Positions 10,383 through 60,382 are shown, counted from the whole stretch's first letter. The stretch is DNA of 61,813 bases, filler included, from Bonamia ostreae (GCA_040357525.1; 24 parts of 24 records of this genome joined end to end with filler, not necessarily neighbours in it); one strand, 5' to 3'. Made by a program: numbers and translations. Notes: a model not told the origin generated them from the letters alone.

Positions 10383-10684
10383 AATTTAAGATTTTTGACA
10401 TCGGAATTCAACACAAAATTTAATAAAAACTTGACATTCGATTCAGTGAATATGCCTGGATCAGACATGATAGTTTATTTAATCATTTGAAGCTTTCGAA
10501 ACAAGTAAACTCTGTAGATTGCGGAGTTTATCTTTTAGAATATATCGAACGATTTTGCAAGGCGCCTTTTGTCGACACGACGACAAGAGAATCGCTGGGC
10601 AAATATTTTTTCACGCCGCAATATATCATCGAAAAAAGAAACAAAATTCTCGATCTCATTTTTAAGCTCAAAAGGGAAGAATGA
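10383..10684 (+). CDS. Ulp1/SENP (C48) SUMO protease C-terminus, 5'-partial; 20-nt intron 10473-10492
   Basis: KQVNSVDCGVYLLEYIERF matches the Q-x-N-x-x-DCG catalytic Cys motif. Confidence 0.85.
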
Positions 10685-10985
10685 AAATTTTCAAATTTTT
10701 CCAGATTATTCCAGATTATTGCGATTTTCAAATTTTGTCAAAATTTTTGTTATTAAAATCGTAATTTCCGAAGCTTAATGTCTCTCTTGAGATTAAAAGT
10801 TAACATTGCGTCGGCATCATTGCACTTCGTTCCTTCCGTGACATAATTCAAATAGCAAAAATAAAAAAAACGCAAATTGCAAAATTATAAAAATGCAAAT
10901 AGTTTAAAAATCCACCAAAAAACTGTTAAACGCTGCTCATATAATAATTACAAACGTTTTTAGCTTTTCCTATAAAAATTTCGAA

Positions 10986-12824
10986 ATGCCGGACAAGCTT
11001 TTTGAGAACATAAATGAAAATCCGGTAGAAGAAGTGATAAAGTTGATAAAAAAGAACAAAAATATTGACGCGGAAAAAGACAAAAATGCCCCTTATTTTT
11101 ATAAAATTGGAGAAAATGGTTCGACAAAGCGAGAAAATGTGTACAACAATTATGACCACCAAATTAGTTCCTTTGTCGAAAACAAACGCATTTCAGACAT
11201 CCCCAAATTTGGAAAAATAAAACAATTTAACAAAGATCAAGATACAATCGACATGTTGAACAAATATCACCAAAAACAGTTTCAACGCAAGTTTAAAACG
11301 GACCATCCGAAATCTAAGAAAAATCTGCCCAGAAATACTAAAAAAAAGTTTTGTTTCTCAATTTATAAAAATTATATTTAAGTCGCTACAATGCAAATTA
11401 TTACAAACATTTTTACCAAAACATCAACAACACCGAAACGAACTATATTAAACGCGAATTTTCAATTGACGTAAATGACTTTGGAGAACAAATTAAAATT
11501 TTCGATTTTGATTATTTGAACAGTTTGAAAATAAAACTAAAGGATCTTACTGAAGAAAGAATGTTTCCAATAATTAATAAAATTTTAATTTTATTCAAGC
11601 GGTTTCAAAGGAACAGTTTACAGTTTTGACAAATCAGTTGAAAAGATTTCTCCCCAAAATCGATTGAAATTGCAAAATTCTCCGTTAAAAAGTTCAAAAT
11701 TGCATACTCGTTACGAAATCGAAGAAGATTCAATTATCGAAGACAATTTGGACAAAGCCGATATTTTTATTTCCGACTGTTTGGCTAATTACGATTAAAG
11801 ACTAATTTTAACTTTAATAATTTTGATTTTAATTAATTTGGATTTTGAAGTATTGTTGGCGACGATAATGACAGCAACCAAATCTTACATGGGATGGGAC
11901 ATAATTGTGAAGAAAAAAGACGACAAATTGTTTTTCTATAAACGAAGGGAATCGGATGTCGGTTTTTCCAATAAAAATTATCTAAAATTGATATTACAGA
12001 AAAAGAGTTTTGTATGAACACAAAATCGAAAACAGAAGATTTGCTGTCAAAAACAAAGGAATCGTCAAAAATCAACGACAATTTTATTTTCTCCTCTTTG
12101 AATTCCAACGAGCAACTGAAATTCGATCCAAATTCGCAGAAAAAATTTGACCATCTTATTACAAAACCAACCAAAAACTCAACCGAAAACAAAAATTCAA
12201 CCGAGAAAAAATTGCCAAATTATGAAAAAGCTTTCCAATATAAAATTTTTGGTATCTCTGAAAACACCAAAATTCTTGTAAAATGTCAAATCGACACTTT
12301 TGTTAAAAATGAGTCATTAACCAAAAAAGAAAAAACTTTTGATGATATCCATTTACTATCATTGAAGGCTTTAAATGAATATGAAGAAGCCGATTCGGCG
12401 AATAGTTGGAGATGCAGATTAGACAATCAAAAAGGGAGTGTCTTGGTGGATGAAGTGCGACAGAACAATTTCAAAATCGCAAGATGGGCTGCACAAGCGC
12501 AGATCGGTGGGATTGACCAGATAAGAATCGGGTTTTAGTTTGATAAACAAAAACTGTAAAGATTTGTGTCTCGGAGTAAAAATAAAAAACCGTTTGATCA
12601 CTTTGCTCAAGCGACGATAAAAGAGTCTCCGGTTAATTTGATGAGTCAAATGGGCATTTATAAAAGCAATTTGTGGGCTATTTTTAAAGAAATCGCTGAT
12701 TTTGCCATGGAAAATCTCGAAAACGACAAGAAATGCATTTTAGTTAAAGATCCAAACAATGTTTTTTTTCTCAATTAATGATTTAAAGGATTGTTTACTG
12801 CTATTCGAAAAAACTGCAAAATAA
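10986..12824 (+). CDS. EIF3D: Translation initiation factor eIF3 subunit D, multi-exon (e.g. introns 12532-12561, 12761-12788)
   Basis: LATIMTATKSYMGWDIIVKK, WRCRLDNQKGSVLVDEVRQNNFKIARW..QIRIG|FVSR and ILVKDPN match eIF3d motifs. Confidence 0.88.
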
Positions 12825-57386: not shown

Positions 57387-58976
57387 ATGGCGGACACCAC
57401 CATAAAATTTAGTATAAAATACAAAAAGAGTCCCAAAAGCGCTGAAGCGCAAAAACCACTTTGGAAGTCCAAAATTTCCGCGCTCGCCAAAATAAGTTTC
57501 AGCCAGCTCAAAATCTACCCCGAAAACGCCCTCGAATTCCAAATCAAGGACCAAAAATTTAATGTCTGGCATCGCATCGAAAACTATAAAGCCATTCCAG
57601 ACCAAGGCGCCGTAATCAAAATAGTCATTCTGGAGGACTTTGTCCCTCTCAAATTCTTTTTAAACAACTTTCGCGAACTGAGTCCTAAAGGCCCTTTCGA
57701 TTCCAACAAGACGGTCCGGCTTCGCGGACTGCCTTGGGAGTGCGACGAAGACGACATTTTCGAGTTCTTCGAAGGCTTGAAAATAAGCCGCGGCGGAGTT
57801 CACATAAACTACACCGACCCCTCGTCCAATCGACATAGCGGCGACGGTTACGTCGAGTTCGAGGAAAAAGAGTCGGTCGAAAAAGCGCTGGAAAAAGCGC
57901 ATCAGTGCATTCTAGAGCGCTACATCGAAATATTTCCGTCGAGCGAGGAAGAAATATTCACTTTCAGAAAGCGGCAATTCGAACTCGCGCGCTTCTCTTC
58001 GGAATCGGTTCCTGTGGACGAAAAGTCGGTCGTGTTAAAAATGATCGGTTTGCCTTGGGAAGCGAGCTATTCCGACATTTTAGACTTCCTCGTGGACACG
58101 CCGCTCAGTAATTGTGAGTAAATTTTAGCCGCGATCCATTTTCCGAAGAACAGACAGGGACGTTCGAGTGGGACGGCTTATGTGGAAGTGCTCAATGGAG
58201 AGTTCGCCTCGTTTCTTTTACTCCAAAATTTTTGTTTTGTTGTTTTGTGATATTTTTGTTTTGTTGTTGTTTCAATATTTTTGTTTTGTTGTTTTGCGAT
58301 ATTTTTGTTTTGTTGTTGTTGTGATATTTTTGTTTTGTTGTTGTGATATTTTTGTTTTGTTGTTTCAATATTTTTGTTTTGTTGTTTTGTGATATTTTGT
58401 TTTGTTGTTGCGATATTTTTGTTTCAATAATTTTGTTTTGTTGTTGCGATATTTTTCCGTCTAAAAACAACTTTATTTTTTTCAAGAAGAGTGCTGGGAC
58501 ACCAAAAAGAGTACATCGGAGATCGCTTTATCGAAATAAAAATGTCAAATATGCGAAACCTCCGTTCAGACATGGACGTCCCCGAGAACTCACCGAATCC
58601 CCAAAAAACGAAAAACAGTCGAGCCACCTCAAAAGCGATCAAAGAAATGTCGGAGAGCCCGTCCGACAAAACTTTACCCGAACCCACCGCAAAAGCGGCG
58701 CTCAGAAAAACTTACTGCGTCCTGATAAGAAACCTCCAATCGGAAACCACGAACTACGCCATCGACAATTTCTTCGCGAGCAACGGAATTCCGCCGTACC
58801 GAATCCACAAACGAGTAAACGGAATGGAAGCTTATTGCGAGTTCTCTACTTCCGACGACTGCGAGATGGCACTCGATTTGACTGGACGGCTTTTGGAAGG
58901 CTGTGAAGTTGTCATTTCGAGAGTGAGCTTCGACGAAGTCGCGGAGCATGTCGGCTTGACTCATTTGAGAGATTGA
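57387..58976 (+). CDS. hnRNP F/H / ESRP-type quasi-RRM protein; introns 58108-58128 (21 nt) and 58211-58486
   Basis: VRLRGLPWECDEDDIFEFFEGL..SGDGYVEF..RYIEIF, then LKMIGLPWEAS..GRSSGTAYVE..IGDRFIEI, then a third RRM. Confidence 0.9.
58225..58455. repeat. Degenerate (TTTTG/TTG)-rich tandem repeat filling intron 2 of the qRRM gene
   Basis: Reiterated TTTTTGTTTTGTTGTT(T/G)..GATAT units. Confidence 0.9.
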
Positions 58977-59440
58977 GTAAATTTGATTTTTTTGCGGTGG
59001 TTTCAATGTGGAACCGCCAAATTGAGTGTTAACACTGTCACTCAAATGCGCTGGGGTTAATTCACCAGTAAAAGCATGAGCGTTCACTCCCTGACACTGT
59101 CTCTCATCAGAAAGACAGCAAATTAAAAATATATTTTAAAAATGGTTAAAATGCTCAAAGACGACAAATCTTTAATTTCTTTTGCGGTGGTTTCCTGCGA
59201 TTGGAACCGTCGCATTTGAGAAATTGCAAAAAATAATTTCTTGTGCGGTTGAAACNNNNNNNNNNNNNNNNNNNNNNNNNNNNNNNNNNNNNNNNNNNNT
59301 TAATTAATTAANNNNNNNNNNNNNNNNNNNNNNNNNNNNNNNNNNNNNNNNNNNNAAAACAAACATTTCATAAAAGCAAAACTATCTTTTTCGTTTCCAT
59401 TAATACATTCCAGCAAATCAAAATACTTATTTTATTCCAA

Positions 59441-60382
59441 AATGTCTTCCGTCGAAATGACCGGTTTTATTAAAACACAACAGAATTTATTGAAGACGAC
59501 TGTGATAAAGTTTCGAAACGGATGCCCTTCTCATTCAATAAATCAAAGACGCACATCGAGTATTCTGAAAGGGACAAAGTTACAGCAGAAAAAATCGCCG
59601 AAGTCTCCAAATCTTTGCCCTTTATTTTCCAATTAGGAGAAGAAACTTACTGCGAAGATTCGAAATGCTTTAAGCGCAAGACAAACATGAATTTGTGTAA
59701 CGACTCTTTTCAAAAAAGGAAGTTCGATTTAATATATTATGATCAATGTTTCAAACATTTCTAACGAAAAGGTCGCGTCTTAAAGCAAATAATAATCATG
59801 AGCAATTTTTTGGTGCACGCTTCTATTTATTTAACAAATGAAATCGATTATGAAAGAACGGTCAATTTTGACTCAAGCGGAACAGTCGTTTTCAATTTGG
59901 TCCAATGCGAATACGTCGCAGAACCGAACGAGGAAACGTTGGAAAGACATTGCATTTTTTTGTTGCGTTCGATCAACACCGTTTTCTTCGGCAAAATGAC
60001 TTTTATTGTTGGAGACGCGTTAGAGAGAATAAGACACAGTTTGTTGGAGGGGTCTTATCTGGTTGGTTTCTTTATTTTCGGTCCAAATTCAGACGCGTCT
60101 GAATTTATGTTTTGCTTAAATCTGGAAAACACTTTTTACGTTTTCGATAACACTTTCAATCCTTTTTCGATGAGCAATATTGAGGACAAAGAGCATTTAG
60201 TTGGACCTATTAACGGAAAGTTTCTTATAAAGGCGTGCGTTTTTAGAAAAAACTCACCGGCGATGTTCGATTTTATGGGCAGAAACAATATTTCGTTTAC
60301 TCAAAAATTTGATGATTGGAAGTTTAGTTATATCCTTTATCAAAAACAGTACATCGAGCAGAGATTTTATCTTACGTATTGA
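59441..60382 (+). CDS. Hypothetical protein; introns 59464-59483 (20 nt) and 59748-59771 (24 nt); may extend beyond 60382
   Basis: Two GTT-type tiny introns join ORFs 59442, 59522 and 59798 into a single frame. Confidence 0.7.

Follow-up and report, generated by a model that had tools for sequence, protein, structure and literature searches.

The window analysed here is a 61,813-nt stretch of Bonamia ostreae DNA (GCA_040357525.1, filler included), and the elements in question are very short segments interrupting its genes, which a first-pass annotation had listed as 18 spliceosomal introns of 19-24 nt. The window consists of 24 separate contigs of 2497 to 2458 bp, sorted by falling length and joined by 23 identical artificial spacers of the form N44-TTAATTAATTAA-N44 (for example at 2498-2597 and 5094-5193). 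Its interpretation as a single 62-kb locus, with the pairs of N runs as masking, was rejected on this account, and since the contigs were joined artificially, neighbourhood and gene order across the spacers carry no meaning. The G+C content was approximately 31% across the window, counting non-N bases only. The standard genetic code applies, and the long reading frames encode eukaryotic nuclear domains, including midasin AAA, SET, CN_hydrolase, RRM, IF-2B, and C2H2. Three exons were 100% identical to the NCBI Bonamia ostreae proteins MHBO_002368, MHBO_002376, and MHBO_002365; these identities excluded a ciliate, a dicyemid, and a nucleomorph as the source. The contigs of the window belong to the public, fragmented assembly of the species, for which PMC11069148 gives a size of 12.24 Mb, an N50 of 1417 bp, and a GC content of 33.3%, and Bonamia is placed in Ascetosporea (PMC11069148, PMC6133090). 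A tRNA search of the window found none.

All 18 listed segments started with GT and ended with AG, as did all 21 introns when three additional ones, absent from the first-pass list, were included. The 21 introns came from 10 independent small contigs. The lengths of the 18 were 19 nt (2 segments), 20 nt (7), 21 nt (3), 22 nt (2), 23 nt (3), and 24 nt (1). Fifteen had a GTT donor and the remaining three all had GTAATT; the acceptors were AAG (13), TAG (3), and CAG (2). These figures agreed exactly with the counts given in the first-pass annotation (18 GT..AG segments of 19-24 nt, mode 20, 15 with GTT, 13 with AAG). Its statement that removal of each segment restores the reading frame was likewise borne out: for every segment there was a single phase in which removal connected two open frames, and the unspliced frame ended within 1-57 codons. 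The four introns with a length divisible by 3 all contained an in-frame stop. At 13 of the 18 junctions no GT..AG solution up to 30 nt long existed besides the segment, and at five there were others. Independent support was available for 11 segments and partial support for one (10473, acceptor side), and six were defined by frame only. The assertion that nearly all of them lie within recognisable conserved motifs was overstated, recognisable domains being present for about half. The introns and candidate introns are listed in Table 1.

Table 1. Introns and candidate introns of the window, with positions counted from the first letter of the whole stretch.
Start	End	Strand	Feature	Evidence
10473	10492	+	20-nt GTT..AAG intron, Ulp1/SENP-like protease gene	partial: acceptor side only
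16068	16090	-	23-nt GTT..TAG intron, absent from first-pass list	X1 deletion of 23 nt at 16068
16880	16899	+	20-nt GTT..AAG intron, eIF2B-like gene	RNA-confirmed; connects 95-aa and 96-aa frames
17147	17195	+	49-nt GTT..AAG intron, eIF2B-like gene, absent from first-pass list	RNA joint 17144->17194
17301	17319	+	19-nt GTT..AAG intron, eIF2B-like gene	donor common with RNA joint; acceptor 17319 or 17331
17385	17480	+	96-nt GTT..GAG intron, eIF2B-like gene, absent from first-pass list	RNA joint 17382->17479
17541	17560	+	20-nt GTT..AAG intron, eIF2B-like gene	RNA-confirmed; X1 deletion at 17539, left-aligned
17850	17872	+	23-nt GTAATT..AAG intron, eIF2B-like gene	frame only; sole GT..AG solution up to 30 nt
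31225	31244	+	20-nt GTT..AAG intron splitting subtilase catalytic-serine motif (GTSMA / PHVSG)	PDB collinearity
31311	31330	+	20-nt GTT..CAG candidate intron	frame only, phase 1; 29-nt alternative
40393	40413	+	21-nt GTT..AAG intron, 20 codons into gene	public model; 58/179 homolog alignments cross
40692	40713	+	22-nt GTT..AAG intron, gene shared with 40393	public model; 114/179 homolog alignments cross
44569	44591	-	23-nt GTT..AAG candidate intron	frame only, 88-aa + 154-aa; 17-nt alternative
45767	45787	+	21-nt GTAATT..AAG intron between CN_hydrolase and agmatine-deiminase parts	public model P0001
48538	48559	-	22-nt GTT..AAG intron, midasin AAA1 fragment	PDB collinearity
49909	49928	+	20-nt GTT..TAG candidate intron upstream of SET domain	frame only, 70-aa + 423-aa
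57074	57092	-	19-nt GTT..TAG candidate intron	frame only, 54-aa + 91-aa
57248	57270	-	23-nt GTT..AAG candidate intron, weakest of set	frame only; upstream frame 17 aa
58108	58128	+	21-nt GTAATT..TAG intron inside hnRNP F/H-type RRM	PDB collinearity
59464	59483	+	20-nt GTT..CAG intron, 7 codons into Bonamia-specific gene	public model P0121
59748	59771	+	24-nt GTT..AAG intron, gene shared with 59464	public model P0121

The contig at 15568-18056, which carries an eIF2B-like gene, was compared with contigs assembled from the reads of run X1 (type RNA by guess, with 60% of the sampled words present), and the comparison covered this contig only. X1 contigs lacked 16880-16899, 17541-17560, and 16068-16090 (-), and also bypassed 17147-17195 and 17385-17480, all with GT..AG ends. 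The 20-nt deletion placed at 16879 is the left-aligned form of 16880-16899. Removal of 16068-16090 (-), which reads GTTGTC..TTAG, connects frames of 59 and 81 aa in phase 0. For the 49-nt intron (GTTTCT..AAAAG), GT..AG ends were obtained by moving the cut two places to the right, and its removal is needed for a single open reading frame (ORF). The 96-nt intron (GTTTTA..TTGAG) was likewise obtained with the cut two places to the right; its joint had a depth of 3515 and was marked 'between: not known', and the frame is preserved. Not every intron of the species is tiny: two longer ones, of 49 and 96 nt and likewise with a GTT donor, lie beside tiny ones in this gene. Two of the three first-pass introns covered by X1 were matched exactly, and the third (17301) was matched at the donor with a different acceptor.

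When introns of 20, 49, 19, 96, 20, and 23 nt were removed from the eIF2B-like gene, one ORF was obtained from the initial M to the stop. The last of these, 17850-17872, lies within a stretch that had no X1 cover (17809-18056), and its removal is required for the ORF to attain its stop. With the 19-nt version of the intron at 17301, 44 residues corresponded exactly to positions 143-186 of the Pfam IF-2B profile, of which the flanking matched exons covered 105-142 and 187-273, the profile picking up at position 187 in the exon after 17541-17560. Longer homologs were sought for the eIF2B-like exon, with no match. As a separate observation, the unspliced X1 contigs in this region had depths of 1222 (17272-17349) and 819 (17355-17507), compared with 3500-9500 for the spliced ones, which suggests either appreciable intron retention or carry-over of pre-mRNA or DNA into X1.

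The public B. ostreae gene models splice five of the 18 segments exactly (40393-40413, 40692-40713, 45767-45787, 59464-59483, and 59748-59771). The spliced model of 40333-41287 matched P0125 (MHBO_002365) at 296 of 296 residues; the homologs of this gene are mostly 2000-3000 aa long, the 179 alignments were to distant homologs, and an alignment was counted as crossing the 40692 junction only if it had at least 10 aa on either side. Across 45767-45787 the public protein P0001 (MHBO_002368) reads ..CEDAR/RGYGD.., where the slash marks the junction. P0121 (MHBO_002376) reads MSSVEMT/E/FIEDD across 59464-59483 and ..LIYYDQ/C/RVLKQ.. across 59748-59771, and its paralog P0123 is collinear over the latter junction. 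These tiny introns are implicit in the public gene models, yet no description of them was found.

Two of the genes concerned have features of their own. The stretch 44785-45981 (+) is one gene, in which a CN_hydrolase domain is followed, as a fusion, by the first part of an agmatine deiminase domain of the Porphyromonas type; the best named relatives of the CN_hydrolase part were N-carbamoylputrescine amidases, and the gene runs past the contig end. N-carbamoylputrescine amidase and agmatine deiminase carry out two consecutive steps in the conversion of agmatine to putrescine. The gene at 59358-60379 (+) has no precomputed Pfam domain and belongs to a family whose detected members are all from B. 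ostreae, with the three paralogs MHBO_001801, MHBO_002680, and MHBO_005260 at 65-66% identity.

Exon pairs were also compared with protein structures in PDB, and were collinear at three of the five junctions tried (31225, 48538, and 58108). At 31225 the upstream exon, ending in ..GTSMA, aligned to residues 187-223 of subtilisin BPN', and the downstream exon, starting with PHVSGVAAL, aligned to residues 280-299 of AprV2. The exons flanking 48538 aligned to residues 308-350 and 352-441 of yeast midasin (5jcs_s), the upstream match being weak (E 0.96). Those flanking 58108 matched a common set of chains, from hnRNP F, hnRNP H, and ESRP1, in the correct order (2db1_A, 19-41 and 50-71; 2hgl_A, 46-68 and 77-97), with weak E values (0.07). 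For 10473, the downstream exon aligned to SENP7 from exon residue 2 (E 2e-8) and the segment is the sole GT..AG solution up to 30 nt, and the 30-aa upstream exon had no PDB match. The exons flanking 49909 had no relevant PDB match on either side. The midasin fragment that contains 48538 (46537-48721, -) corresponds to yeast residues from approximately 308 onward, in the AAA1-AAA2 region; it occupies an entire contig and is truncated at both ends.

Several observations weigh against the reading of these segments as genuine, mostly miniaturised introns. For six of the 18 (17850, 31311, 44569, 49909, 57074, and 57248) the evidence is the joining of frames. Pfam searches gave no match for the exons flanking 31311 (31247-31309 and 31333-31548), no significant match for those flanking 44569, and, for the exon upstream of 57074, a weak Metallophos match (E 0.004) that was below the cut-off; 57248-57270 is the sole GT..AG solution up to 30 nt for its junction. 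In a scan for frame-joining segments of 18-25 nt with frames of at least 40 aa, 66 GT..AG segments were found compared with 54 for the CT..AC control, and a junction-level count of frame-joining likewise gave GT..AG numbers indistinguishable from controls. The only RNA joint at 17301 runs from 17300 to 17332, removing 31 nt rather than 19, at a depth of 20 and marked 'between: not known', and unspliced X1 contigs span 17272-17349 and 17355-17507. A 25-nt AT-rich GTT..AAG segment that joins frames at 16378-16402 (-) was covered unspliced by the same X1 contig that removes the nearby 23-nt intron; a GTT..AAG signature and an open frame are therefore insufficient to call an intron. To these are added the labelling of X1 as RNA only by guess, the small sample, with 21 introns from 10 small contigs, and the marginal strength of the AAG acceptor preference (p=0.07 for the independent set described below).

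The results of the loose scans, the alternative solutions up to 30 nt for five of the 18 junctions, and the unspliced candidate at 16378-16402 (-) would be expected if many of the 18 were chance GT..AG pairs at abutting frames, or frameshifts of the assembly. This explanation is nevertheless considered very improbable. The checks agreed with the proposed introns, with two of the three covered by RNA exact and the donor shared at the third, all five in public models spliced identically, and three of five exon pairs collinear in PDB (10473 on the acceptor-side exon only, 49909 without a relevant match). When only tight junctions were considered, 33 of 189 were solved by GT..AG compared with 13 of 189 by CT..AC, a modest excess. 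Because frame-joining is weak in power, it is the RNA, the gene models, and the homology that carry the case.

Loss of the segments at the DNA level, through strain indels or a ciliate-like excision rather than RNA splicing, would account for the same gaps, and the guessed type of X1 leaves room for it. Against it, every omitted segment has GT..AG ends and their joint removal restores one ORF, while X1 coverage was patchy and confined to the gene, with zero-depth bins on either side and with spliced and unspliced forms present together. Such loss is regarded as hardly credible. Taken with the X1 contigs, the public gene models, and the homology, which back the first-pass claim of real ultra-short GT..AG introns, the segments in Bonamia ostreae (Haplosporida, Ascetosporea, Rhizaria) are in all likelihood genuine nuclear spliceosomal GT..AG introns, most of them shrunk to 19-24 nt, 20 nt being the commonest length.

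The splice signature was evaluated against the background of the window, in which the probability of T following GT was 0.428 and that of A preceding AG was 0.418. An independent set of 12 introns was used, picked via RNA, gene model, or homology and blind to the sequence pattern. The GTT donor was present in 15 of the 18 first-pass introns (p=5e-4), 10 of the 12 independent introns (p=0.005), and 18 of all 21 (p=6.5e-5), so the reported GTT bias holds after correction for AT content. The AAG acceptor was present in 13 of 18 (p=0.009), 8 of 12 (p=0.07), and 14 of 21 (p=0.019); the raw count behind the reported AAG bias was correct, but the preference is only marginal against the 42% background. 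All six RNA-defined donors in the contig at 15568-18056 were GTT, also in the introns of 49 and 96 nt. At position +3, T was present in 18 of 21 introns and a purine in three, always within GTAATT; T was present at +4 in 12 of 21, and G at +5 in three of 21. The canonical 5' site complementary to U1 is GTRAGT, and a purine at +3 is the norm elsewhere. The 5' sites of the window did not fit this complement of the canonical U1 5' end.

It is conceivable that only the length of these introns is special, and that GTT and AAG reflect AT-rich composition together with case picking in the first-pass annotation, which may have been made by searching for the pattern. The high background frequencies of T and A at these positions, and the AAG result in the 12 independent introns, would be consistent with this. 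It is judged improbable, since GTT was equally dominant in introns chosen by RNA, model, or homology and at all RNA-defined donors, those of 49 and 96 nt included, and since the purine that is the norm at +3 was so rare.

The 8 nt preceding the AG of the short introns were 48% A and 47% pyrimidine, in agreement with the claim that a pyrimidine tract is missing; the short introns had neither a polypyrimidine tract nor a preference for YAG acceptors, with a pyrimidine at -3 in six of 21. The (T/C)TAA motif pointed out in the first-pass annotation was enriched, being present inside 14 of 19 short introns, compared with 15% of GT..AG segments of the same length and 25% of AT-matched ones. The number of nucleotides after YTAA ranged from 3 to 15 overall and was 7-10 in nine of the 14. 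Within short introns, AGs lying at positions 11, 11, and 15 were bypassed. The 96-nt intron 17385-17480 has a T-rich 3' end and bypasses four internal AGs, and therefore length alone does not choose the 3' site, which argues against the purely length-based 3' site choice that had been proposed.

A mechanism compatible with these features may be outlined. The internal YTAA could serve as the branch site, mostly 7-10 nt from the 3' end of the intron, and the 3' splice site would be the first AG past it. A floor of approximately 19 nt might be imposed by the geometry of the spliceosome, with internal AGs at positions 11-15 being bypassed. The GTT donor is common to long and short introns, and is therefore attributed to a lineage-wide change in 5' site recognition and not to a by-product of shrinkage; we read it as a shift of this kind. 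There is roughly an even chance that GTT is recognised through a re-tuned U1/U6 or in a U1-independent manner, as suspected in mikrocytids. In the alternative, the spliceosome would be of the ordinary kind and accept degenerate sites. A search of the window against Rfam, at the gathering threshold and at E<=1, gave no match and no small nuclear RNA (snRNA). A more far-reaching scheme is put forward tentatively and is thought rather unlikely to hold as a whole: the canonical U1:GURAGU duplex would be dispensable (with a re-tuned U1/U6 or recognition without U1), this condition together with miniaturisation would already have been present in the ancestor that haplosporidians and mikrocytids share, and Bonamia, with introns of 19-24 nt and a few longer ones retained, would be an intermediate toward the mikrocytid extreme of 16-17 nt.

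The closest known counterparts are the mikrocytids, and the available text of PMC10245619 was used for comparison. In Mikrocytos mackini, 224 introns are described, of which 217 measure 16 bp and 7 measure 17 bp; all are said to share highly conserved sequences, and the mikrocytid spliceosome is given as 17-19 proteins, U2, U4, and U6 being the only snRNAs found (PMC10245619). As far as that text goes, Bonamia resembles the mikrocytids (Mikrocytos mackini and Paramikrocytos canceri) in being an ascetosporean parasite of invertebrates with an AT-rich nuclear genome and ultra-short spliceosomal introns within a narrow size band. Unlike the fixed 16-17 nt reported there, the Bonamia introns measure 19-24 nt and occur beside others of 49 and 96 nt. 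Their recurrent sequence comprises only GTT(Y), YTAA, and AG, the comparison leaving the mikrocytid consensus aside. The nucleomorph introns of chlorarachniophytes are described as 18-21 bp long, overlapping in size with those of Bonamia, and are also numerous and within a narrow band (PMC10245619); they are located in a relic green-algal nucleus, whereas Bonamia, a heterotrophic parasite, has its introns in the main nucleus.

Heterotrich ciliates have a GTAA donor. The introns of Stentor, a heterotrich, are also ultra-short nuclear spliceosomal introns, described as 15-16 bp (PMC10245619), and differ in being shorter and of fixed length in a free-living giant cell, compared with 19-24 nt in the parasite Bonamia. 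For B. ostreae itself, PMC11069148, which covers the same assembly and gene models, states that the species 'carry canonical introns' and puts their mean number at 2 per mRNA, and the intron passages of its main text give no intron length and no logo. The B. ostreae transcriptome paper (PMC9329632) contains neither 'intron' nor 'splic', and the available text of PMC13746701 describes intron numbers and sizes in Ascetosporea as drastically reduced. A literature search, with older subscription papers and supplements outside its reach, found no report of introns of approximately 20 nt or of GTT donors in haplosporidians. The suggestion in the first-pass annotation that short introns may already be reported for this lineage thus applies to the mikrocytids, going by the available text of PMC10245619, and no such report was found for Bonamia or the haplosporidians.

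These results extend ultra-short introns from mikrocytids to haplosporidians, and raise the question of whether shrinkage occurred once or repeatedly in Ascetosporea. Introns of approximately 20 nt are below the usual minimum intron size of aligners and gene finders. Tiny introns that are overlooked shorten gene models, in this instance those of a pathogen of commercial oysters. With a shared GTT donor, and tiny and longer introns in one gene, Bonamia is a natural system in which 5' recognition can be separated from constraints on length.

Other frame-joining GT..AG candidates of 20-26 nt were observed in the window at 6770-6795 (-), 11779-11800 (+), 40005-40025 (+), and 205-224 (-), and these may be additional tiny introns.

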